Shown: piece by piece, positions 2,431-14,448 of the stretch
How the letters are laid out: each line of letters begins with the position of its first letter
Numbering within the stretch: position 1 is the first letter of the stretch
DNA from: Patescibacteria group bacterium
Lineage (GTDB): Bacteria; Patescibacteriota; Microgenomatia; UBA12405
Length of the DNA: 64,000 nucleotides
Direction: 5' to 3'
Assembly (NCBI GenBank): GCA_013387215.1
Contig: WARW01000003.1
Location: 10,227-74,226, forward strand
The notes under the pieces: model-generated
Seen by the model: the letters and a program-made list of their open reading frames with translations, nothing else
The model's database searches: none
Told to the model about the DNA's origin: nothing
Translations under genes and position numbers: made by a program

Positions 2431-4206
2431 ATGAATATTTTAAAGTGGAACCTGGACGACATATTATCTGTTGAAAAATTTGATGAATTTTTTTGGGAAA
2501 TTCAAAATGATATTGGTTATTATCCACAACTAATTAAAAAACTAGACCCTCGAATGGAAGAGGAATTGTTTAAAGAGATAATAGATTTTGATGAAAATTT
2601 GAGCGAGAAAATTTCCAGATTGAGTTATCTGCCTCACTTAATGGAAACTACCAACCAAAAAGACCAGAAGGCTCAAATTTTAAAATCAAAAGCAGACCAA
2701 ATAATTGTTAGCTATGAGGAAGTTTCAAGAAAATTATTTCACTGGCTTAAGGGAAAAAAGGTTAACGAATTAGAGATTTTGGACAATAAAAATGCAGAAA
2801 GACTATTTGAATCGATTCCTGATTTGGAATTTCAACTTAAACATAATCGTGAAGCATCAAAATACGCTTTAAACGAATCTGAAGAAAACATAATTAGCAA
2901 TAAAAATATTAGCGGAATATTTGCAGTCAAAGATTTACGAAGACAAATATCAACTGGTTTTAGATATAAATTAAAGATTAAAAATCAAAAAACAAGAATA
3001 ATTAAAACACAAGCCGAATTAACAAATTTAGCGCACAGCTCTAAACCAGAAGAAAGAAAAGCGGCCTACTTAAGCTTGTTTAAAGAGTATGAAAAAAATT
3101 TAGATAAATTTTTTATAATTTATCAAGCAGTGGTTAAAGATTGGAATTATGAAGCAAAACTTAGAGGTTATGAAAGCGCCATCAGCATTAGAAATTTTAA
3201 TAATCATATTTCTAATGAAGTAATTGAGATGTTATTAAAAACCTGCAGTGAAAATAAATATGTTTTTCAAAAATATTTTAGATATAAAGCAAAAGAAATG
3301 GGGGTTGAGAAATTAAATCGTTTTGATATTTATGCTCCATTTAAGGCTAGGACTTATAAACACATAGAATTTAATAAAGCAAAAGAGTTGGTTTTAGAAA
3401 CATTTAAAGAATTTTCACCCAGTTTTTACAATCAGGCCAAAAAAATATTTGACGATAAACATATTGATTCCCACCCGAATCCAGAAAAAAGAAGCGGTGC
3501 ATTTTGTGCAACAATCAGTCCTAAAATAACTCCTTACATAATGATGAATTTTACAGGTGAAAAAAATGATTTATATACATTAGCTCATGAACTAGGACAC
3601 GGTATTCACAGTTTATTGGCAAATAATCATTATTATTCAAGTCAGCAGGCTACCCTACCTCTGGCTGAAACCGCTTCCACTTTATCGGAATTAATTTTGT
3701 TTGAAAAAACTTATAAAAATGAACACGATTCTAAAGTTAAAAAAACAATGCTGATTGACCAGATAGCAAGTTCTTATGCAAGCATATTGAGACAAAATTA
3801 TTTTGTGCTATTTGAAATTGAAGCCCATAAATTGATTAATTCAGGGTGCAATTCCAGCCAATTGTCGGAATTGTGGCTAAATACATTAAAGGAGCAGTTT
3901 GGGGATAGTGTAGAGGTGGATAGGGTTTTTAAAAATGAATGGGCTTATATCCCCCATATCTTTGATACACCATTTTATTGCTACAGCTATAATTTTGGAG
4001 AACTATTAAGTTATGCTTTGTATAGTAGATATAAAAAGGAAGGTTTAAGTTTTGTTTCTAAAATTGAAACGATATTGAAAAGCGGAGGTTCAGAGGATCC
4101 CGAAAAAATATTAATGAATGCTGGAATAAATATTAAGGATAAAAACTTTTGGCAGAGTAGTTTTGAGATAATAAATGAATGGCAATCTACATTAGAGAAA
4201 TTGTAA
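2431..4206 (+). CDS. pepF: Oligoendopeptidase F, M3B family
   Basis: 591 aa with HELGHGIHS (HEXXH) zinc motif and M3B-like length and organisation. Confidence 0.85.
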   Translation: MNILKWNLDDILSVEKFDEFFWEIQNDIGYYPQLIKKLDPRMEEELFKEIIDFDENLSEKISRLSYLPHLMETTNQKDQKAQILKSKADQIIVSYEEVSRKLFHWLKGKKVNELEILDNKNAERLFESIPDLEFQLKHNREASKYALNESEENIISNKNISGIFAVKDLRRQISTGFRYKLKIKNQKTRIIKTQAELTNLAHSSKPEERKAAYLSLFKEYEKNLDKFFIIYQAVVKDWNYEAKLRGYESAISIRNFNNHISNEVIEMLLKTCSENKYVFQKYFRYKAKEMGVEKLNRFDIYAPFKARTYKHIEFNKAKELVLETFKEFSPSFYNQAKKIFDDKHIDSHPNPEKRSGAFCATISPKITPYIMMNFTGEKNDLYTLAHELGHGIHSLLANNHYYSSQQATLPLAETASTLSELILFEKTYKNEHDSKVKKTMLIDQIASSYASILRQNYFVLFEIEAHKLINSGCNSSQLSELWLNTLKEQFGDSVEVDRVFKNEWAYIPHIFDTPFYCYSYNFGELLSYALYSRYKKEGLSFVSKIETILKSGGSEDPEKILMNAGINIKDKNFWQSSFEIINEWQSTLEKL

Positions 4207-4216
4207 TTAAGTGATA

Positions 4217-4234
4217 TAATTTACATGTAAATTA
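4217..4234. promoter_or_regulatory. 18-bp perfect palindrome TAATTTACATGTAAATTA immediately after a TGATATAAT -10-like box
   Basis: Seen directly. Perfect dyad symmetry. Lies upstream of the small peptide gene and the HK/RR operon; TGATATAAT sits at 4212-4220. Confidence 0.4.
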
Positions 4235-4240
4235 AGGGTA

Positions 4241-4275
4241 ATGTTTGTTTATTTCAAACATGAAGTTCATTTTTT
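4241..4275 (+). terminator. Weak hairpin (ATGTTTG-7nt-CAAACAT) followed by a T-run; possible pepF terminator
   Basis: 7-bp inverted repeat at 4241-4261, T5 at 4271-4275. The 8-nt gap between stem and T-run makes it a weak candidate. Confidence 0.25.
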
Positions 4276-4485: not shown

Positions 4486-5961
4486 ATGCTAAAAACAATC
4501 ATAAACAAATTAATTTCTAGGTTTAATAATTACTTATTTAATTTTTCCCGGATAAGTGATGAAGATTTGAGGCGAAAGGCTAAGATTTTTAATATAATCA
4601 CTTTCTCTATTTTTTTATTGACTTTATATTCTCTTGCGACTTGGATATTTGGTTATTGTTTTATTGATAGATCTTCTGACAGAAATTTTAGCCACATAAT
4701 TCCAATTTTAGTACTTACACTATTGCCAATTATATTGTTAAAAGTTTCCTTATTAGGAAAACCAAGATTAGCAGCTTGGATATTAATATCATTACTATTA
4801 TTGGCTACATTAAGAACTTCTTTAATTTATGGTGTAAATGTACCAATGGCAACTGTAAGTTATGCGCTAATAATTTTTATGAGCGGAATCTTGGTTGGGC
4901 CATTAAGTGCTTTTTTATTAACAATAATAATTTTTGGTTGCTTGTTAAGCATTTTCTTTTCCCACACGTGGCATTTTATTGAGGTATATTCTGATTGGAA
5001 GAATAAATCTTCTGATATATCGGATATTCTGATATTGAATGTTATATATTTGGTCATTGCAATAGTGTCATGGTTATCGAGCCGAGAAGTTAACAAATCA
5101 CTTAAAAATGCTAATTTATCAGAACAGAAAGCTTTAATGTTGGCTGACAAATTACAAAAACAAAATGATGATCTGGAAAAAATAGTAGAAGAAAGAACAC
5201 AAGAACTTAGGGAACATCAATTAAAACAGCTGATGGAAATAAATACGTTGGCTGAATTTGGAAAAATATCAGCAGGATTATTACATGATTTGAAGAATCC
5301 ATTAACGGTAATTTCAATGAATTTAGACAGTATTAATGATTACGTTAAAGACAAAAATATTTTAAGTCAATCGGAATGGAAAAAATTAATCAACAATTCT
5401 TTATTAGCTTCCAGAACAGTGGAATCAATGGTCAGAACTTCGCAAAAGCAATTAATTAATGAAGATACTAAAGTATTATTTGATTTAAAAAAGGAAATTA
5501 AAAATACTTTAATACTTTTGAATACAAGAGCAAATAAGTTTGGGATAGAAATAAAATTTGTATGTAAAGAATCAATAAACATATTCGGTTGTCCAACAAA
5601 ACTGTCTAGAGTTTTAGCCAACCTAGTTGTAAATAGTATAGATGCTTTGAGGGATGCAAAAAGAGATTTTCCAAAAATAACTATTGAAGTTCAGAAAAAT
5701 AAAACTTCAATAGAAATTATGATTAAAGATAATGGCTGCGGTATTAAAGACGAAGACAAGAAAAATATTTTTCAAGCATTATTTAGTACAAAAAAAGAAA
5801 TGAATAATTCTGGTTTAGGCCTATTTATCAGTAAAACTATTTTGGATAGTTGTTTTAAAGGTACTATTAGTTTTAAAAGTACCTGGGGTGAAGGAAGTGA
5901 ATTTTTAATCGATATTCCGGTTTTAAAACAAAATGGAGCAAAAACTAAACAAAGTAATTGA
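4486..5961 (+). CDS. Sensor histidine kinase with an N-terminal 6-TM sensor domain lacking large extracellular loops
   Basis: About 6 TM helices in the first roughly 200 aa, coiled coil, H-box LLHDLKNPLTVI, then an HATPase_c domain with DNGCGI and GLGLFISK motifs. Confidence 0.85.
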   Translation: MLKTIINKLISRFNNYLFNFSRISDEDLRRKAKIFNIITFSIFLLTLYSLATWIFGYCFIDRSSDRNFSHIIPILVLTLLPIILLKVSLLGKPRLAAWILISLLLLATLRTSLIYGVNVPMATVSYALIIFMSGILVGPLSAFLLTIIIFGCLLSIFFSHTWHFIEVYSDWKNKSSDISDILILNVIYLVIAIVSWLSSREVNKSLKNANLSEQKALMLADKLQKQNDDLEKIVEERTQELREHQLKQLMEINTLAEFGKISAGLLHDLKNPLTVISMNLDSINDYVKDKNILSQSEWKKLINNSLLASRTVESMVRTSQKQLINEDTKVLFDLKKEIKNTLILLNTRANKFGIEIKFVCKESINIFGCPTKLSRVLANLVVNSIDALRDAKRDFPKITIEVQKNKTSIEIMIKDNGCGIKDEDKKNIFQALFSTKKEMNNSGLGLFISKTILDSCFKGTISFKSTWGEGSEFLIDIPVLKQNGAKTKQSN

Positions 5962-7807
5962 TAAAGGAATTGCCTTTTTAACTGATGAATTAGAAAAGAA
6001 TGTATATTTTGGATTTGAAAGCATATTTCCAATGATTTTGGTTTTTGATTGTCTTAATGAAATTGACAATAAAGGCAGCTACTTGATTAAAGCGAAAATT
6101 AAAAAAGTTTTATTGAAAGAGAAAAATGAATTATGGTCTTTTAATTATTGGAAAAGAAAATCGATAAAAAACAAAATAGAACCATATCCTGAGGATCTTG
6201 ATGATACATGTTTAGCACTTAGTGCTTTATATAGATTTGATAAAAAAGTTTTCAAGGGCAATGATCTTGCAAAAATAATTAATCTTTTAATATTGGCGGA
6301 AGAAAAGATAGGCGGCCCATATCGTACTTGGATATTGGCTAAAGAAAAGTCGGAAAAATGGAGTGATATCGATATTGCAGTTAATAGCAACATTGGATAT
6401 TTTTTAAAATTACAAAAAATTAAGTTAAAGAACTTAACTGAATTAATTGAAAATGGAATCATTAAAGACAAAATATATTCCCCTTTTTATAAAGGTGAGC
6501 TGCCCGTAATTTATTTTATTTCCCGTTTTTATAATGGGAAATTAAAAAATATTTTGAAAGAAAAACTTATCAATAAGGCAAATACTAGCGATTCGGCCTT
6601 AGATTTAGCTTTGATAATAAGCAGTTTAATCAGACTCGGTTATAAAAATATAAAAGAAGACTGGGTTAAGAAAATATGTACAAAACAATCCAAATCAGGA
6701 AATTGGATAGGTGAAGATTTTTATTTTTATGTAGACAAATTAAAACAAACTAATTTTATTGGTACTGAAAGCATTAGTACGGCTTTTATTTTGGAAGCTT
6801 TAACTTTATATATAAATCAAAAACTCAAATTTAAAGATCCATTGTTTTTAGAGATTAATGAGTTTAAAAAAGAAACAGTTTTCAGGCTAGAAAAAGTTTT
6901 TGAAAAGCATCCCGATAAATTAAAAAAGGAAATATTAACATTTATCAAAAACTTAGCTTCGAGCAGTGAATCAGAAATGATAATTGCGACGCCATTAATT
7001 GTTTTAAATTCTATCGATACGGAATTAAAGATCAAAATAACAAAAGATTTTATTGTCAAATTAGGACAAATTAATTTATTGGGATGGTGTGCATATACGA
7101 TTTACGACGATATTATGGACAGTGATTCTTCAGGAAAAATGATTCCAATGGCAAATATAATTTGCAGGGAGATGGAATCAATACTAGGCAGTCTTCCAAT
7201 AAACAAGGAAACAGGTTTTTTTAATTTTTCCAAATTTTTATTGCAAAAAATGGAAATAAGTAATTGGTTTGAACAGAATTATTTATGTCTTAACTCTAGC
7301 AATAATACAATCGATGAGTTTGATTATAAAAAGTTAGCCGATAAGTCTTTAGGACATGCATTGAGCTCAGTAGCAATTTTATGTTATTTGAAACAATCAG
7401 TAAGGTCTTTAGAGGTCCGTTATTTAATGAATTATTTTAGATATTTTATTGTTGCTAAACAGATGAATGATGACGTTCATGATTGGTTAGAAGATTTAGA
7501 AAAAGGCCAAATAAACAGTGCGAGTTATGGATTAATAAAATTTTTAGAAAAAAACAATAAAAGTATTTATAAAGAAATCATGAATAAAGAAAATTTAAAA
7601 TTAATTTTTTGGCAAAATATTGTTCCTGATTATTGTAATAAAATAATATATTTTTCAAATAAAGCGAAAAGAGCATTAAACCAATCCAGTTTAATTATCA
7701 ACAAACTATATTTATTGAATTTAAATAATAAGAATGTAGAATTATGTAGAATTGCATTAAAAGAAAGAAAAAATACATTAGACTTTATAAAAAATTACTA
7801 CAAATGA
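5933..7807 (+). CDS. Two-domain fusion: N-terminal alpha/alpha-toroid (terpene cyclase/prenyltransferase-like, PEDLDDTCLAL) plus a C-terminal isoprenyl-diphosphate-synthase/terpene-synthase-like domain (DDIMD and DDVHD); ComQ-like candidate
   Basis: 624 aa. DxDDT motif at about aa 87-92. The first DDxxD sits in YTIYDDIMDSD (aa 391-395, FARM-like), the second in QMNDDVHDWLED (aa 513-517, SARM-like), about 120 aa apart. Overlaps the HK by 29 nt and the RR by 4 nt, indicating translational coupling. Confidence 0.55.
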   Translation: MEQKLNKVIDKGIAFLTDELEKNVYFGFESIFPMILVFDCLNEIDNKGSYLIKAKIKKVLLKEKNELWSFNYWKRKSIKNKIEPYPEDLDDTCLALSALYRFDKKVFKGNDLAKIINLLILAEEKIGGPYRTWILAKEKSEKWSDIDIAVNSNIGYFLKLQKIKLKNLTELIENGIIKDKIYSPFYKGELPVIYFISRFYNGKLKNILKEKLINKANTSDSALDLALIISSLIRLGYKNIKEDWVKKICTKQSKSGNWIGEDFYFYVDKLKQTNFIGTESISTAFILEALTLYINQKLKFKDPLFLEINEFKKETVFRLEKVFEKHPDKLKKEILTFIKNLASSSESEMIIATPLIVLNSIDTELKIKITKDFIVKLGQINLLGWCAYTIYDDIMDSDSSGKMIPMANIICREMESILGSLPINKETGFFNFSKFLLQKMEISNWFEQNYLCLNSSNNTIDEFDYKKLADKSLGHALSSVAILCYLKQSVRSLEVRYLMNYFRYFIVAKQMNDDVHDWLEDLEKGQINSASYGLIKFLEKNNKSIYKEIMNKENLKLIFWQNIVPDYCNKIIYFSNKAKRALNQSSLIINKLYLLNLNNKNVELCRIALKERKNTLDFIKNYYK

Positions 7808-8484
7808 ATATACTATATATAGAAGACGATAAACAATTAGCCAAAACTATCCAACAAAAACTGATTTCTCATTACAATGTTGATATCTCTCCAACTGGTA
7901 AAAAAGGCATCATTTTAGCCGAGAATAAAGAATATGATCTTTTTATAATTGACTACTATCTGCCAGATCAAAACGGAATTCAAGTTTGTAAAAAAATTAG
8001 AGAGGTTGATACCAAAACACCAATTTTGGTTTTTACTACTAACGATACTAAAAAAGATGTGGTTGAAGCGCTTGATGCAGGAGCTGATGATTATTTGACA
8101 AAACCATTTTCTTATCAAGAGTTAGAAGCCAGAATCAGAGCACTTGTAAGAAGAAACAGTCGTAAGCAGCCAACCAAGCAGATAAATGTTGGCAAATTGA
8201 CTATTAAATTGGATGATCAATATATTGTTTTAAACAAACAATATATTAAATTGCCGAGGCAAGAATATATGCTTTTAAAATATTTGACCACAAATAAAGG
8301 AAAATTGGTTTCACGAGAGGAACTCTATGAACATGTATGGGGTAGAGATGATTACTATAATTCAAACACAATAGACGTCCACATAAGGCGTTTGAGAAAA
8401 AGATTAAAAGAACTTGTTGGAGAAAACTGCATTAAGTCGGTTTATGGAAGTGGATATAAAATATATAATTTTCAAGAAGAATAA
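7804..8484 (+). CDS. Response regulator, OmpR/PhoB family
   Basis: Receiver domain with D residues and LTKPF, plus a C-terminal winged-helix Trans_reg_C (LPRQEYMLLKYL...IDVHIRRLRKRL). Confidence 0.85.
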   Translation: MNILYIEDDKQLAKTIQQKLISHYNVDISPTGKKGIILAENKEYDLFIIDYYLPDQNGIQVCKKIREVDTKTPILVFTTNDTKKDVVEALDAGADDYLTKPFSYQELEARIRALVRRNSRKQPTKQINVGKLTIKLDDQYIVLNKQYIKLPRQEYMLLKYLTTNKGKLVSREELYEHVWGRDDYYNSNTIDVHIRRLRKRLKELVGENCIKSVYGSGYKIYNFQEE

Positions 8485-8614: not shown

Positions 8615-9262
8615 ATGAACGAAAAAATCAAAAAACAACTCACGGCATTTTTTAACAAATATAAACTTATAAAGTATAAAAAGGGTCAAATTCTTTTTAA
8701 ACCAGGTGAGAGAATTAATGGTATTTTATTTGATAAAAGTGGTTACGTAAGAGTCTACACTATCTCAAAAGAAGGAAAGGAAATTACACTACCAATGTTA
8801 AAACCTTTATTTTTCTGTTCTTTAGTCGATGCTTTATTGGGCAAAGAAAACAAATATTACATTGAAGCTATTAGCCCAGTGGAATTATGGCTGGCTCCAG
8901 AAAACGAATTTATGGATTTTATCAAACAAGATCCAGATCTTTACGATAAAATGACCAAATCTATGTTGAATGATTTTATGGATTTAACTAATAATGTTCA
9001 ACAGCTTATTTTTGGGGATGCATACACAAAGATTGCCAGTTTAATATATTCGATGTCAGAAAAATTTGGAGAAATGAAAGGCAAAGAAACCGTCATCGGA
9101 TTTAATACTCCCCACAGAATGTTGGCTAGCATGACTGGGTTAACCAGAGAAACAGTGACTCTACAAATCTTAAAATTACAAAAGGAAGGCTTTTTGTATA
9201 ATAAAGGCCGAAGAATTGTAATTAAAGATATGGAAAAACTCAAAGAAATTGCTCAGGTCTAA
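8615..9262 (+). CDS. Crp/Fnr-family transcriptional regulator
   Basis: cNMP-binding-like N-terminal domain and a C-terminal HTH (SMTGLTRETVTLQILKLQKEGFL). Confidence 0.75.
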   Translation: MNEKIKKQLTAFFNKYKLIKYKKGQILFKPGERINGILFDKSGYVRVYTISKEGKEITLPMLKPLFFCSLVDALLGKENKYYIEAISPVELWLAPENEFMDFIKQDPDLYDKMTKSMLNDFMDLTNNVQQLIFGDAYTKIASLIYSMSEKFGEMKGKETVIGFNTPHRMLASMTGLTRETVTLQILKLQKEGFLYNKGRRIVIKDMEKLKEIAQV

Positions 9263-9265
9263 TTT

Positions 9266-9700
9266 TTGGTCTATAATTTGTTTATGACTAGTTCAAGTAG
9301 GATTTACAGATCTAAAAATGAGTACATAATTGCCGGTGTTTGCGGAGGTTTGGCGGAACATTTTAATATTGATCCAACCATAGTTAGGATAATTTTTATC
9401 CTCTTAACTTTAGGTGGCGGGAGCGGAATATTAATATATATAATTCTGTGGTTGGTTTTACCTATGGAAGGAAAAAATGAGCCGGATGATTTGAAAGATA
9501 GAGTTAAAGAAATTTCAGAAGAGTTTAAGAATAATTATTCAAATAGAGAAAAGAGAGGTAACTTTTTGGGAATTATAATATTGTTGATTGGCGTAGTTGC
9601 TTTGTTGGACCAGATTCAACCAGCAATAATCAGATGGGATATTTTTTGGCCAGCCGTTTTGATTATGACAGGGTTGTTTTTGATATTTAGAAAAAGATAA
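9266..9700 (+). CDS. PspC-domain membrane protein
   Basis: YRSKNEYIIAGVCGGLAEHFNIDPTIVRIIF PspC signature followed by TM segments. Confidence 0.7.
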   Translation: MVYNLFMTSSSRIYRSKNEYIIAGVCGGLAEHFNIDPTIVRIIFILLTLGGGSGILIYIILWLVLPMEGKNEPDDLKDRVKEISEEFKNNYSNREKRGNFLGIIILLIGVVALLDQIQPAIIRWDIFWPAVLIMTGLFLIFRKR

Positions 9701-9892: not shown

Positions 9893-10279
9893 ATGATTAA
9901 AAGGATCCTAATAATAATTTCAATAATTGTACTTTATCTAATTCCTAAAAACATTAAATATGATAAAAAAACAAACCCTTCATTGGTAAATAATTCGCAA
10001 GTGATTGTTAGCCAAACCCCCTTAATAAGCAGCAGAGGTATCAAAATAAAAAATATAAATGCCCCTGAGATAATTGGTGTTAACGGAAAAGAAAATTTCT
10101 ATCCAGACCACAGCCTACCTATTAATATAAACAATATCCTATTGATTGGCTCTGCCATATTTATTAGTTCAGGAATTGGTCTTTTAGAAATAGACAATAT
10201 GGTGGCGAGAGTGAGAAATCTTGTTAATAAAATTAACTTTAACGGCTCTTTAGTTAAATTCATTAATAGAATATTATGA
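9893..10279 (+). CDS. Small membrane-anchored protein, first gene of the glucan-synthase operon
   Basis: N-terminal TM segment. Start moved to the internal Met (MIKRIL). Stop overlaps the next gene's ATG (ATGA overlap). Confidence 0.35.
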   Translation: MIKRILIIISIIVLYLIPKNIKYDKKTNPSLVNNSQVIVSQTPLISSRGIKIKNINAPEIIGVNGKENFYPDHSLPININNILLIGSAIFISSGIGLLEIDNMVARVRNLVNKINFNGSLVKFINRIL

Positions 10280-11463
10280 ACAAAAGAATTTTGGGCTATT
10301 TATTTATAGTATTAGGGATTGCAGTTTTTGGATATGTTTTGTATGTTAATAGCCAATACATTGATTTAACTCGGCCGTTTTCGTCATATACTTTGTTGAT
10401 TTCTTCATGGGAAAAATATAAACAAGAATTTATAAATAAAGACGGCAGAGTAATTGATTATTCCCAAAGCGGAATTACAACATCTGAAGGCCAAAGTTAC
10501 GCCATGCTTAGATCAGTATATATTGATGACAAAGGCGCTTTTGACCAAGTTTGGAATTGGAGCAAAATAAATCTTAAAAGACCAACTGATAATCTTTTTG
10601 GGTGGAAATGGGGTTTAACCAGTGATAATAAATATGGGTTTTTAGAAAATGGAGGAAGTAATTCAGCTGCCGATGCAGATACCGATATCGCTTTGGCACT
10701 AATATTTGCGGGAAAGCGCTGGAAAAATGATGAATATATAAACCAATCAAAAACAATCTTAAAGGATATTTGGGATAAAGAAACTGGAGTGGCTGCTGGA
10801 AAAAGATATCTGATTGCCGGGAACTGGGCAACTGATGGAAATATGCTAATTATTAATCCTTCATATTTTGAGCCATACGCCTGGAGAATTTTTGCCACAG
10901 TCGACAAAGATCATGACTGGAATAGTTTAATCGGCCCGGCTTATGCTTTATTGACAGATTCAGGAAAAAGTAATCTGGATAAAAATTCATCGGTGGGACT
11001 GCCTCCAGATTGGGTAGAAATTGATAAAACAACAGGTGTTTTAAAGGCACCAAGTTTTGCCAATTTAACCACAAATTATAGTTTTGATGCTATGAGAATT
11101 CCCTGGAAAATTGGATTGGATTATCAATGGAACAAAAATCAGGAGGCTTACAATTACCTGGCTCAATCATTTAAAAAAATATCGGAAATATATGCGACTG
11201 ATGGTAAGCTGCCAACATCACTGTCTCACGATGGACAAATAGTTCAAGATCAAGAAAATCCAACCATGTACGCAACTGCAATTGGTTATTTTATGTTGGC
11301 TGACCCCATAGCAGCAAAAAAAATATATCAAGAGAAAATCCTCAACTTATATTCCAACGACCAAAACATGTTCAACAGCAATCTTCCCTACTATGAACAA
11401 AACTGGTTATGGTTTGGTTCGGCAATTTACAACCACGAAATAAATAGTTTAAGCAATCAATGA
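10276..11463 (+). CDS. bcsZ: Glycoside hydrolase family 8 endoglucanase (BcsZ-like), membrane-anchored
   Basis: SEGQSYAML and AADADTDIALALIFAGKRW match the GH8 signature A-[ST]-D-[AG]-D-x2-[IM]-A-x-[SA]-[LIVM]...W. N-terminal signal anchor. Confidence 0.7.
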   Translation: MNKRILGYLFIVLGIAVFGYVLYVNSQYIDLTRPFSSYTLLISSWEKYKQEFINKDGRVIDYSQSGITTSEGQSYAMLRSVYIDDKGAFDQVWNWSKINLKRPTDNLFGWKWGLTSDNKYGFLENGGSNSAADADTDIALALIFAGKRWKNDEYINQSKTILKDIWDKETGVAAGKRYLIAGNWATDGNMLIINPSYFEPYAWRIFATVDKDHDWNSLIGPAYALLTDSGKSNLDKNSSVGLPPDWVEIDKTTGVLKAPSFANLTTNYSFDAMRIPWKIGLDYQWNKNQEAYNYLAQSFKKISEIYATDGKLPTSLSHDGQIVQDQENPTMYATAIGYFMLADPIAAKKIYQEKILNLYSNDQNMFNSNLPYYEQNWLWFGSAIYNHEINSLSNQ

Positions 11464-13010
11464 AATTTAATATAAACAAAGGCCTCCTAGAAAGAGGAAA
11501 AATTGATAAGTCGTTAATAGGGCTTAATTTGGCCATGACTGCTTTTTATTTTTCTTGGTGGCTGACACCGTCGCATATAGATAATAAGTTTTTATATTTT
11601 CTATTGTTTATAGGGGAAATTTATCATATTTTTATGGCCTTAACTTTTTGGCACACAATTGCTCCGGGGCAATTAAAAATTAAAAAAGTGAATAGATCTA
11701 AAAAATTCTTGCCTACAGTAGACATATTTATAACAGTAGCAGGAGAACCAGTAGAAATAGTAAAACAGACAATAAACAAAGTTTTGAACATGAACTATCC
11801 AAAATCTTTTATATATATATTGAATGATAGTTTAGTGGCTAAAAAAGAAAATTGGAGAGAGTATGAATATTTAGCTGAAGAAATGGGGGTTTTTTGCATA
11901 ACCAGAACCGTGTCTGGAGGTGCAAAAGCCGGCAATATTAATCATGCCTTAAAAATAACCACAGGCAAATTAATTGCCATCTTTGATGCCGATATGCAAC
12001 CAAGACCGAATTTTTTATCCAGATTAATACCCTATTTTAGAAACAAAAAGGTTGGTTTTGTGCAAACTCCTCAATATTATAAAAACTGGCAAAATAATTT
12101 GGTTAGCAGCGGCGCATGGGCCCAACAAGAGTTTTTTTTCGGCCCAATAATGAAAGGGAAAGAAAAAAGTAATTCGGCTTTTATTTGCGGAACAAATTTT
12201 TTGATAAGACGAACTGCTTTATTGGAAGCTGGCGGAATGCAGGAGAATAATATTGCAGAGGATTTTTTAACATCACTGTTTGTTCATAATAATGGCTGGC
12301 TGTCTTATTATGTAAACGAAGTGTTGAGTGAGGGTCTGGCTCCAGAAGATATGTTGTCATACTTTAAACAACAACTAAGATGGGCCAGAGGGTCATTGGA
12401 AATCGTATTTACTAGAAATAATCCTCTTTTCAAAAAAAGATTGAGTTGGCACCAAAGGATTGAATATTTATCATCATCTTTGTATTACTTTAATGGAATT
12501 ATAGTTCTAATCGATATTGTAATGCCATTGTTGTTTTTATTTTTTGGAATACGACCAGTAGCAGCTAGCTCCACCTCGTTTGCACTTTTCTTTGTACCTT
12601 TTATATTTTTAAATTTATATTCACTAAGAATGGCTTCTGCCGACAGAATATCCTTTCAAGCATTATCATTCACTCAGTCGTCTTGGACACTCCAAATTTT
12701 GGCTCTAAAATCAATTCTTTTAAAACAAAAAATGAAGTTTGAAGTTACTTCAAAAAGGGCTCTGACTGGAAACTACATAAACTTAGCTTATCCTCATATT
12801 ACTTATATTGTTTTAGCATTTATGGGATCGATCACAGCTGTGCTTAGAGAAGGAATTAACCCATCAGTAATAACAAACATTGCCTGGGTATTAGTAAATA
12901 CAATATTATTTATTCCATTTATTATGGCAGCTTATAAGGCTGAAGGTGTTCCACGACCCAAACTGGAAATCGATCTGGCAACTGAAAATGAAAGAAAACA
13001 TGTCAAATAA
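11460..13010 (+). CDS. GT2 processive beta-glycosyltransferase, cellulose-synthase (BcsA)-like
   Basis: Motifs FDADMQP (DxD), QTPQYY and QQLRWARG (QxxRW) with flanking TM helices. ATGA overlap with the GH8 gene. Confidence 0.75.
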   Translation: MKFNINKGLLERGKIDKSLIGLNLAMTAFYFSWWLTPSHIDNKFLYFLLFIGEIYHIFMALTFWHTIAPGQLKIKKVNRSKKFLPTVDIFITVAGEPVEIVKQTINKVLNMNYPKSFIYILNDSLVAKKENWREYEYLAEEMGVFCITRTVSGGAKAGNINHALKITTGKLIAIFDADMQPRPNFLSRLIPYFRNKKVGFVQTPQYYKNWQNNLVSSGAWAQQEFFFGPIMKGKEKSNSAFICGTNFLIRRTALLEAGGMQENNIAEDFLTSLFVHNNGWLSYYVNEVLSEGLAPEDMLSYFKQQLRWARGSLEIVFTRNNPLFKKRLSWHQRIEYLSSSLYYFNGIIVLIDIVMPLLFLFFGIRPVAASSTSFALFFVPFIFLNLYSLRMASADRISFQALSFTQSSWTLQILALKSILLKQKMKFEVTSKRALTGNYINLAYPHITYIVLAFMGSITAVLREGINPSVITNIAWVLVNTILFIPFIMAAYKAEGVPRPKLEIDLATENERKHVK

Positions 13011-14448
13011 ATTACTAGTGCTGATAGTTCTGGTGACATCCCTAATCAGCATTTATTTTCTTTTTACACAATCGATTCGTTTAGATGAGGCTCAATCGAT
13101 ATGGATGTTTACTAAATCGATTCCCGGGATGCTCAAACTTACTTCTCAAGATGTAAATTTACCGCTTTACGGAATAATTATGCATTTCTGGCTGCAGATA
13201 TTAGGAATAAATATTGTTAGAGCCAGATTATTATCTTTGATATTCTTTTTAATAACATTACCAGTTCTGTACCAACTAATAAAAGAATCGAGCGATAGTG
13301 ATCATGCAATTTTAACAGTAGCATTTTTTGCTTTTTCTCCTTTTATTTTGTGGTACACCAGTGAAGCCCGAACTTATACGTTGTTTATATTAATTGCTTG
13401 TTTACAACAATTATATTTTTTACGATTAATCAGAAGTGGTGGAAATAACGGAAAATTTGGTTATTTTATTGGTACTGCACTTGGATTTTATACACATTAT
13501 TTTTTTATTTTCCTTTTAATTGCCCAAATAGTTTTTGTACTGAGTTTAAGAATAGTTAAAGGTAAAAATAAAAATAGGTTAATTAAACGTCACCTAATTT
13601 TAGATTTTGGAGGTTTATTGGTTTTTATTCCTTGGATTTATTATATTTTTAGGACCGGAGGAGCGGTTAACACACAGCCATTAATTCCTATTCCAAACAG
13701 CTATAGCGTGGTGCAGACTTTTGTTAATTTTGTGGTGGGATTTCAATCTCAATCAATTCAAGCAGTCTTAATTTCTCTTTGGCCACTTTCGACTGTAATT
13801 TTATTTTTAATGTTTACACATAGGAAACAAAAATTGGTTAAAAATGTCGAATACTTTTTTTTAGTCACTTTTTTACCGATTATTTTAGTGTTTTTAATAT
13901 CTTTTATAAAACCCATTTTTTTATCTAGATATTTAATTTTAGTGACACCAACATTATTTTTTATAATTGCATGGATAATTTTGAGTAATTCTAAAAAAAT
14001 ATCTTTTTATTTATCGGTATTAATTTTGCTTTTGATGTTTAGTTTTTTAATGTTTCAGAACATTTCGGCAGCAACTCCAAGTAAAGAAAACTATAGTGAA
14101 GTTAGCCAATATTTGAACCAATATACAACACCAGAAGATATTGTGGCAATTACTGCTCCATTTACTATTTATCCAATTGAATACCAATACCAAGGTGAAG
14201 CTAAATTAGTAACAATTCCTAATTGGGATAAATATGTTGAAGGACCAATCCCCCAATATAATTCTGATAATCTAGTTAAACAAATTAATGACTATAAAAC
14301 TCAATATAATCGTTTGTTTGTGGTTTTTTCGTATGATCAGGGATATGAAAATGATATAAAAAATTATCTGGACACACATTATGCCATCATGGGAATGGGA
14401 AAGTTTTCGGACAGTATTGAAATGAGAATCTACAAATTGAGATACTAG
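13000..14448 (+). CDS. GT-C (PMT_2 / ArnT-like) membrane glycosyltransferase-like protein
   Basis: Roughly 11 TM helices and a first periplasmic loop RLDEAQSIW..., typical of family 39/83 GT-C enzymes. Start chosen at the Met (MSNKLL) just inside the upstream stop. Confidence 0.5.
   Translation: MSNKLLVLIVLVTSLISIYFLFTQSIRLDEAQSIWMFTKSIPGMLKLTSQDVNLPLYGIIMHFWLQILGINIVRARLLSLIFFLITLPVLYQLIKESSDSDHAILTVAFFAFSPFILWYTSEARTYTLFILIACLQQLYFLRLIRSGGNNGKFGYFIGTALGFYTHYFFIFLLIAQIVFVLSLRIVKGKNKNRLIKRHLILDFGGLLVFIPWIYYIFRTGGAVNTQPLIPIPNSYSVVQTFVNFVVGFQSQSIQAVLISLWPLSTVILFLMFTHRKQKLVKNVEYFFLVTFLPIILVFLISFIKPIFLSRYLILVTPTLFFIIAWIILSNSKKISFYLSVLILLLMFSFLMFQNISAATPSKENYSEVSQYLNQYTTPEDIVAITAPFTIYPIEYQYQGEAKLVTIPNWDKYVEGPIPQYNSDNLVKQINDYKTQYNRLFVVFSYDQGYENDIKNYLDTHYAIMGMGKFSDSIEMRIYKLRY

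Follow-up and report, generated by a model that had tools for sequence, protein, structure and literature searches.

A cyclase–prenyltransferase fusion enzyme of Patescibacteria, linked to a short tryptophan peptide and a two-component system, as a candidate ComQXPA-like peptide maturase

What might an enzyme do that joins a terpene cyclase-like half to a prenyltransferase-like half and is encoded between a membrane histidine kinase and a response regulator? The question is raised by a locus in the window analysed here, a stretch of 64,000 nucleotides from contig WARW01000003.1 of a Patescibacteria group bacterium (Table 1). An earlier reading made from the letters and their open reading frames (ORFs), referred to here as the sequence-only reading, had described the ORF at 5933-7807 as a class II cyclase-like toroid fused to a domain with aspartate-rich prenyl diphosphate synthase motifs, and had speculated that the two domains share an adjacent ComX-like peptide as their substrate. 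The ORF lies exactly there on the + strand, the observation is confirmed, and the interpretation, its speculative part included, is supported by the results given below. In our reading, to which we assign a probability of roughly 0.6, the ORF encodes a bifunctional peptide maturase within a peptide–kinase–maturase–regulator operon that would serve ComQXPA-like signalling through a peptide carrying a cyclised terpene. The motif strings quoted earlier are all present in the enzyme (PEDLDDT at residues 86-92, YDDIMD at 391-396 and QMNDDVHDWLED at 510-521), although the residue numbers first attached to them were one too low.

The enzyme used as query gives no Pfam match at a threshold of E ≤ 10, and a phmmer search of the PDB returned nothing. 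By its sequences it is a member of a very large, uncharacterised and almost exclusively patescibacterial family. A word-indexed search yielded 52 full-length homologues; an exhaustive hidden Markov model (HMM) search yielded 3,212 cluster representatives (50% identity) at E ≤ 1e-3, of which 1,477 pass E ≤ 1e-30, and relatives occur in 358 species-representative genomes. The best 150 matches of the exhaustive search are all full-length family members of about 570-770 residues, nearly all of 600-700. Word-indexed searches with alignments of the C-terminal and N-terminal domains, aimed outside the Patescibacteria and at other architectures, retrieved only family members and fragments. Conservation was read from an alignment of 48 homologues that are 27-57% identical to the query. 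Residues D90, Y186, D392, D396, Q510, D513, H516, D517 and D521 are invariant in it, and D88, D91, T92 and D514 are kept in at least 90% of the sequences, a degree of conservation that points to strong selection on these motifs rather than to chance strings.

Does the N-terminal half correspond to a cyclase? The family profile matches residues 251-524, the TC-β domain, of the drimenol synthase AsDMS (9mhs, 9m7d) with an E value of 1.4e-14. Structure prediction, proposed earlier as a check, gave a confident AlphaFold2 model (pLDDT 93, pTM 0.86) from which folds could be assigned to both domains. The first ~300 residues of the model adopt the single (α/α)6-type barrel of a terpene cyclase β domain, and their superposition indicates a single TC-β class II cyclase, not a β–γ pair; the toroid fold first suggested is upheld by profile and model, corrected to one β-type domain. 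The best matches of this domain, in sequence and in structure, are AsDMS/AstC-type HAD–TC-β enzymes and MstE. Alignment with AsDMS places a DxDD(T)-type general acid at the catalytic aspartate position, so that the resemblance of the DxDDT string to class II cyclases has proved sound, D90 being invariant. By sequence alignment, D88, D90 and Y186 are the counterparts of D331, D333 and Y427 of AsDMS; the AsDMS numbering was fixed through the D333N row of the alignment, and Y186 pairs with the second tyrosine of RYYP. In AsDMS these three residues are catalytic, the D333N, D331A/N and Y427F variants are inactive, and Y427 is hydrogen-bonded to the general acid and activates it (PMC12365925). Their conservation across the family makes an active, protonation-type cyclase the natural inference for the N-terminal domain.

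In its single β-type barrel, D-x-D acid pair and activating tyrosine the domain resembles AsDMS, AstC and MstE. It differs from AsDMS in its motif (DLDDT here, DLDTT there) and in its partner, which is a HAD phosphatase in AsDMS, an enzyme acting on free farnesyl diphosphate (FPP), and a prenyltransferase here, where the substrate would likely be a peptide-bound chain. The QW-like repeats read from the sequence come down to one clear motif in the query, for which the plural was an overstatement; the family consensus has a second, QxxDGSF, near the N terminus. Weak Pfam matches among the 48 homologues are to SQHop_cyclase_C (15/48) and TED_complement (16/48), and a few homologues carry a faint precomputed match to PF28380 (AstC-like_C).

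In the model the C-terminal domain shows the all-α trans-IDS fold (trans-isoprenyl diphosphate synthase), with medium- and long-chain prenyl diphosphate synthases as its best structural matches. Profile–profile alignment with 18 polyprenyl synthases encoded beside family members is collinear (global E value of 3.7e-6), YDDxxD falling on the first aspartate-rich motif (FARM) and QxxDDxHD on the FQxxDD of the second (SARM). The FARM- and SARM-like motifs reported earlier are therefore aligned with those of genuine isoprenyl pyrophosphate synthases (IPPSs), and their key aspartates do not vary; residue 393, between the invariant D392 and D396, may be D, N or Q in the family. The FARM equivalent presumably binds Mg2+ and the prenyl diphosphate. 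It is followed by DSDSSGKMIP in the query and DxEGxxxxLP in the family consensus, where the neighbouring IPPSs have DxSxxRRG, and the absence of RRG was correctly recognized from the outset. Loss of RRG argues against condensation with isopentenyl diphosphate and supports the earlier view that a prenyltransferase-like activity is likelier here than chain elongation. The string NDDVHDWLE was considered as the NSE/DTE motif of a class I terpene synthase and rejected, as it aligns with SARM and the fold is nearer to trans-IDS.

In a recent review, ComQ, PalQ, Ord1 and ChrPC's P domain are placed together under the name 'trans-IDS-like prenyltransferases'; the review states that tryptophan is the target of every characterised one, and it attributes indole recognition in ComQ, PalQ, ChrPC and Ord1 to a conserved glutamine just upstream of SARM (PMC13290415). 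The invariant Q510, three residues ahead of D513, fits this glutamine; canonical IDSs carry FQxxDD too, so that the glutamine alone does not discriminate.

On what substrate might the two domains act? The genes of the window run in the order peptide (4338), kinase (4486), enzyme (5933) and regulator (7804), all on the + strand. The peptide ORF is separated from the kinase by 31 bases, the kinase stop overlaps the enzyme start by 29 nt and the enzyme stop overlaps the regulator start by 4 nt (ATGA); the overlapping codons indicate one operon. The peptide has a single tryptophan, four residues before its C terminus, which is the proposed prenyl acceptor. Linkage was counted over 85 loci. A peptide HMM, built from the window ORF and the same small ORF at three distant loci, detects the peptide at 71 of them (E values of 1e-5 to 1e-18), always just upstream of the kinase; among the other 14 loci, four hold a peptide with a non-ATG start and ten end at a contig edge before that position, so that the peptide is present at 75 of the 75 assessable loci. 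The ORFs encode 35-40 residues and share a leader of about 15 residues at the start (MKxLxKKxLTDKxAR), and at every locus a tryptophan stands 1-7 residues from the C terminus, the sole invariant residue of the C-terminal part, immediately preceded by proline in 57 of 70 peptides. The presence of a tryptophan peptide throughout makes joint action of both domains on the adjacent peptide the best-supported part of the sequence-only reading. Two peptides, those of loci L049 and L074, end in PWGW, with two tryptophans two positions apart, and double prenylation is a possibility there. A further candidate reading, in which the peptide would be a Sec signal peptide cleaved before PW, was rejected because a hydrophobic core occurs in only 23 of 70 peptides and not in that of the window.

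At 80 of the 85 loci the gene immediately upstream of the enzyme, and on its strand, encodes a homologous kinase; the other five comprise three truncated loci and two in which peptide and kinase are in divergent orientation. For the window's kinase, hydropathy suggests about six transmembrane helices within residues 32-200, ahead of HisKA and HATPase_c, with no extracytoplasmic domain; this kinase is the proposed receptor of the modified peptide. The homologous OmpR-type regulator is found at 69 loci, usually just upstream of the peptide. Cassette loci come from Saccharibacteria, Microgenomates and Parcubacteria, and maintenance of the linkage across these lineages, with enzymes only 26-37% identical to the query, points to its ancient origin. 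A canonical polyprenyl synthase is encoded at 19 loci and abuts the enzyme at 15; in these adjacent synthases the positions ahead of FARM hold small residues, whose sequence hints at products of C20 or longer.

Individual loci depart from this layout. In L058 and L083 (Saccharimonadales) the peptide and kinase lie on the strand opposite the enzyme, with extra receiver-domain genes downstream. L001, the locus of the closest relative, has its kinase gene in two pieces, ORFs of 292 and 204 residues (6553-7999), which would reflect either a frameshift or pseudogene or else an assembly error. The polyprenyl synthases of L010, L037, L002, L035, L050, L075 and L083 have deviating motifs, for example DDVEDHSLERRH, DDFEDQSEERRS or, instead of RRG, RYD, RHG or RWG, and in most of them no exact second DDxxD is present; both the chain length they make and their activity itself are uncertain. 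The typical cassette also appears in third-party metagenome-assembled genomes titled 'uncultured Gammaproteobacteria', Methylomirabilota, Sulfotelmatobacter, Bacillota or Vitreimonas (L014, L017, L022, L027, L037, L040, L041, L043, L044, L047, L051, L052, L056, L060, L068, L073 and L077). These titles could reflect mislabelling, mis-binning or real horizontal transfer.

How could the two active sites cooperate? This analysis establishes the folds, the conservation of the catalytic residues and a universal linkage of the genes. All functional statements, on the substrate, on which step comes first, on export and on a role in signalling, we infer from the sequences, the predicted structure and the linkage. 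The C-terminal domain would bind a prenyl diphosphate through Mg2+ at D392 and D396. This donor, probably C15-C20 and supplied in many relatives by the adjacent polyprenyl synthase, would be ionised and its prenyl cation transferred to the indole of the single conserved peptide tryptophan, with Q510 and D513 positioning the indole and the N-terminal 15 residues of the peptide acting as a recognition leader. D90, activated by Y186 and D88, would then protonate the attached chain at its distal double bond, and the chain might fold into a polycyclic, drimane- or labdane-like terpene on the peptide. Once FPP is cyclised to drimenyl diphosphate, the allylic diphosphate needed for ionisation is gone, so that with a C15 donor only transfer followed by cyclisation would be feasible; with a C20 donor the reverse order, a copalyl-type diphosphate being formed first and transferred second, is chemically possible. 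For ChrPC, the order described in the review is likewise transfer, then cyclisation (PMC13290415). The lipidated peptide, probably without its leader, would be sensed within the membrane by the six-helix kinase, which would phosphorylate the OmpR-type regulator, leading to autoinduction or to sensing of cell density or of a partner, as in ComQXPA. More tentatively, and with appreciably less confidence, we suggest a self-contained pheromone circuit extending throughout the phylum Patescibacteria, in which a short peptide whose tryptophan carries a polycyclic terpene (cyclised C15-C20) would be made by the fusion enzyme and read by a dedicated six-helix kinase and an OmpR-type regulator; the circuit would have evolved separately from the Bacillus ComQXPA system.

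The closest functional analogues are the ChrPC-type maturases (Hubrich et al., Chem 2024), set beside the family here by analogy and through a review's description of them. As described there, the trans-IDS-like P domain of ChrPC prenylates a tryptophan of a RiPP (a peptide made by the ribosome and modified after translation) and the C domain cyclises the prenyl group (PMC13290415). Compared at the level of that description, both proteins combine on one chain a trans-IDS-like prenyltransferase and a monodomain class II (MstE-like) cyclase, the target being a tryptophan of a ribosomal peptide in ChrPC and, as proposed, in the present family, ChrPC using C10-C20 donors and cyclising the attached chain after transfer. 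The present locus therefore has the ChrPC/NctPC-type arrangement as defined in PMC13290415, a prenyltransferase and a monodomain class II cyclase beside a tryptophan-containing precursor. The fusion of a class II toroid to an α-type domain, which had been described as rare in bacteria, is borne out for both domains but has this published precedent, so that, on the review's account, a prenyltransferase–cyclase fusion acting on a RiPP tryptophan is already a known kind of enzyme. There are differences: in ChrPC, to judge by the name, P precedes C, and the present enzyme has its cyclase at the N terminus; the precursors of the present family have 35-40 residues and a leader family of their own and belong to no curated peptide family; and the cassette, built on a histidine kinase with its response regulator, is nearly confined to Patescibacteria.

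The signalling side of the cassette resembles ComQXPA. With ComQ and PalQ the locus shares a trans-IDS-fold enzyme beside a small precursor with a near-C-terminal tryptophan, the distance of 1-7 residues from the C terminus being like that in ComX and StheX, and with ComQXPA it has in common a membrane histidine kinase of polytopic type, encoded on one strand with a response regulator. A similar linkage of histidine kinase, precursor and prenyltransferase is seen in the cluster of PalP, PalX and PalQ (PMC10853753). Four adjacent same-strand genes of the ComQXPA types are present in the window, and the arrangement recurs across the loci. The components differ from those of ComQXPA in several respects: the enzyme is not of the ComQ family by sequence and carries an additional cyclase domain, the gene order is RR-X-P-Q or X-P-Q-RR (RR, response regulator) and not comQ-X-P-A, and orthology was not found, the peptide being without a family and the kinase scoring below every equivalog cut-off. 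The best reading, by analogy, is a system that would work like ComQXPA without being a member of it by sequence. Ord1, an all-α-helical indole prenyltransferase that farnesylates free tryptophan, is a stand-alone enzyme with ~12% identity. In the drimentine pathway, a tryptophan diketopiperazine is farnesylated at C3 of the indole, followed by class II, protonation-initiated cyclisation to a drimane. The proposed chemistry would follow the same logic, although the drimentine pathway relies on separate enzymes, a membrane cyclase and a cyclodipeptide and involves no ribosomal peptide.

Several observations weigh against our reading of the locus. Neither the whole enzyme nor either half has a meaningful match in Pfam or NCBIfam, the C-terminal domain falling within neither the ComQ family nor polyprenyl_synt by these searches, and the fold assignments consequently rest on the family profile and the predicted structure. 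For the C-terminal domain the connection to trans-IDS is structural, read from the model, and the sequence-profile evidence is weak: against the PDB its profile reaches only E values of ~0.5-1, to heptaprenyl diphosphate synthase and MoeN5, and local hhalign comparison with the neighbouring polyprenyl synthases gives a probability of 16%. The chemistry could also differ from that of ComQ-type enzymes, since SARM is a full DDxxD here, in contrast to the degenerate motif of those enzymes, to which no metal binds (StheQ preprint). The peptide matches no Pfam or NCBIfam family, the NCBIfam leader-peptide models included. Its middle part is variable and, in 23 of 70 peptides, strongly hydrophobic, resembling an anchor or signal peptide, so that a diffusible signal is not assured for about one-third of them. 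The cassette contains no conserved exporter or leader protease, and the 64-kb window contains no IPPS gene. The two-component proteins differ in type as well, the kinase being a HisKA/HATPase_c protein and the regulator an OmpR/PhoB protein with Trans_reg_C, unlike ComP and the NarL-type ComA.

The hydrophobic centre of those 23 peptides fits membrane anchoring, and with it an explanation in which the peptide is modified as proposed but ends as a secreted bioactive RiPP, such as an antimicrobial or host-directed lipopeptide, or as a peptide held at the surface by its terpene. In that case the two-component system would be there only for autoregulation or immunity of the producer, as NisRK is for nisin. 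The known products of prenyltransferase–cyclase maturases are reportedly RiPPs with modest anti-cyanobacterial activity, and a host-directed lipopeptide is plausible for Patescibacteria, which are episymbionts. We nevertheless regard this outcome as unlikely. The tightest linkage is that of peptide, kinase and enzyme (80/85), with no conserved transporter, immunity gene or protease, and the kinase is polytopic without an external domain, an architecture typical of receptors for hydrophobic peptide pheromones such as AgrC and ComP. Maturation of a signalling peptide remains our preferred reading on these grounds.

Two further explanations would dispense with the peptide as substrate. Class II and class I activities on one chain follow the logic of labdane-type biosynthesis, bacterial fusions of this kind being known, as far as the source consulted describes them (PMC12164552), and the enzyme might accordingly be a small-molecule terpene synthase whose class II domain cyclises geranylgeranyl diphosphate or FPP and whose α domain ionises the product to a free polycyclic terpene, the small ORF and the two-component system being unrelated regulators. 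Both aspartate-rich motifs are intact and could bind an Mg2+ cluster, and one homologue has a weak Terpene_syn_C_2 match (E value of 1e-5). This seems quite improbable to us: the second motif is a SARM-type QxxDDxxD and not NSE/DTE, the combination of DDxxD and NSE/DTE on a class I cyclase α fold was not found, the ranking of folds disfavours it, and the tryptophan peptide at 75 of 75 loci would be left unexplained. We give least credence of all, very little indeed, to a C-terminal domain that elongates chains as an IPPS and feeds the fused cyclase for production of a hopanoid-like membrane lipid. Its best structural matches, the medium- and long-chain synthases, would suit that role, as would a FARM core, DDIMDS, that is the core of eukaryotic FPP synthases such as human FDPS. 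However, neither RRG after FARM nor the N-terminal GKxxR region is conserved, none of the 48 members matches the polyprenyl_synt Pfam family, and at 15 loci a separate canonical IPPS with intact RRG stands beside the enzyme, next to which an elongating domain would be redundant.

Table 1. Features of the locus and of its surroundings in the 64,000-nucleotide window (aa, amino-acid residues).
Feature	Position	Strand	Assignment and evidence
M3-family oligopeptidase, PepF-like	2431-4206	+	Pfam E 6e-51; immediately upstream of the cassette
Promoter-like site TAGAGA-16-TGnTATAAT	4193-4220	+	Upstream of the peptide ORF; best-scoring + strand match; weak candidate operon promoter
AT-rich perfect 7-bp inverted repeat ATGTTTG-N7-CAAACAT, with a T-run after it	4241-4261		Lies after the M3 peptidase gene and ahead of the peptide ORF
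Precursor peptide ORF, 38 aa	4338-4454	+	MKKLMEEILTDKSARNMAQTDALSLAVEEVGDPWQSIA; strong ribosome-binding site, AAGGTGGTGA, ~8 nt upstream
Membrane histidine kinase, 491 aa	4486-5961	+	Pfam HATPase_c E 6e-19, HisKA E 2.5e-5
Two-domain enzyme ORF, 624 aa	5933-7807	+	ATG to TAA
Enzyme N-terminal domain, first ~300 residues	5933-6832	+	Class II terpene cyclase (predicted)
DxDDT general-acid motif D88-L-D90-D91-T92	6194-6208	+	Aligned with AsDMS D331-L-D333-T-T
Y186	6488-6490	+	Counterpart of AsDMS Y427; invariant in 48 sequences
QW-like motif QSKSGNW, aa 252-258	6686-6706	+	Regular-expression scan; single clear instance
Enzyme C-terminal domain, ~aa 301-624	6833-7807	+	Trans-isoprenyl-diphosphate-synthase-fold prenyltransferase (predicted)
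FARM equivalent Y391-D392-D393-I-M-D396	7103-7120	+	Aligned with LLIHDDIID of neighbouring IPPSs
SARM equivalent with upstream Gln, Q510-M-N-D513-D514-V-H516-D517-W-L-E-D521	7460-7495	+	Aligned with IPPS FQxxDD
OmpR/PhoB-type response regulator, 226 aa	7804-8484	+	Pfam Response_reg E 1.7e-25, Trans_reg_C E 1.1e-23
Crp/Fnr-type regulator and PspC/LiaF-TM membrane-stress protein	8615-9700	+	cNMP_binding and HTH_Crp_2 in the regulator
Glycan-synthesis cluster	10276-14448	+	GH8 hydrolase, cellulose-synthase-like GT2 (516 aa), PMT_2-type glycosyltransferase

The surroundings of the cassette were considered for further components. The M3 oligopeptidase is probably no dedicated leader protease and was rejected in that role: only L001, the closest relative, keeps it in synteny, and in other lineages its place is taken by the regulator. 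The inverted repeat that follows might terminate the upstream gene or serve the regulator as an operator. Scanning the region for promoters and terminators gave no more matches than shuffled sequence, so that the promoter-like site ahead of the peptide is only a candidate. Directly downstream of the response regulator, in the window as in L001, lie the genes of the Crp/Fnr-type regulator and the PspC/LiaF-TM protein. The glycan cluster beyond them, for which the Pfam assignments were taken from the syntenic L001 genes, has a layout like that of a bcs-type exopolysaccharide operon.

Much of bacterial diversity is made up of Patescibacteria, whose life is spent attached to the cells of hosts, and to our knowledge almost nothing is known of the way in which they sense density or partners. 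Our literature searches found no work linking ComQXPA to the candidate phyla radiation (CPR) and, with the term 'terpene cyclase', none on such an enzyme in Patescibacteria; quorum sensing, two-component systems and prenylation are not mentioned in a recent perspective and a genetics paper on these organisms. In a 2026 preprint on StheQ, Chloroflexi still figure as the first case of ComQ-like systems outside Firmicutes, and the present cassette would extend ComQ-like peptide prenylation well beyond both. What is new is the family itself and, within it, a cyclase–prenyltransferase fusion hard-wired to a short tryptophan peptide and a two-component system. The family would represent a large source of peptide prenyltransferase–cyclase fusions with short natural substrates, enzymes that would be useful for putting cyclic terpenes onto peptides. 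Its interest is moderate for terpene and RiPP enzymology and high for CPR biology, to which the compact cassette of four or five genes offers a concrete and testable signalling candidate. If our reading is true, and as far as the literature found allows us to judge, it would be the first system for cell–cell or partner sensing proposed for these episymbionts, and its product the first pheromone with a cyclised terpenoid moiety.

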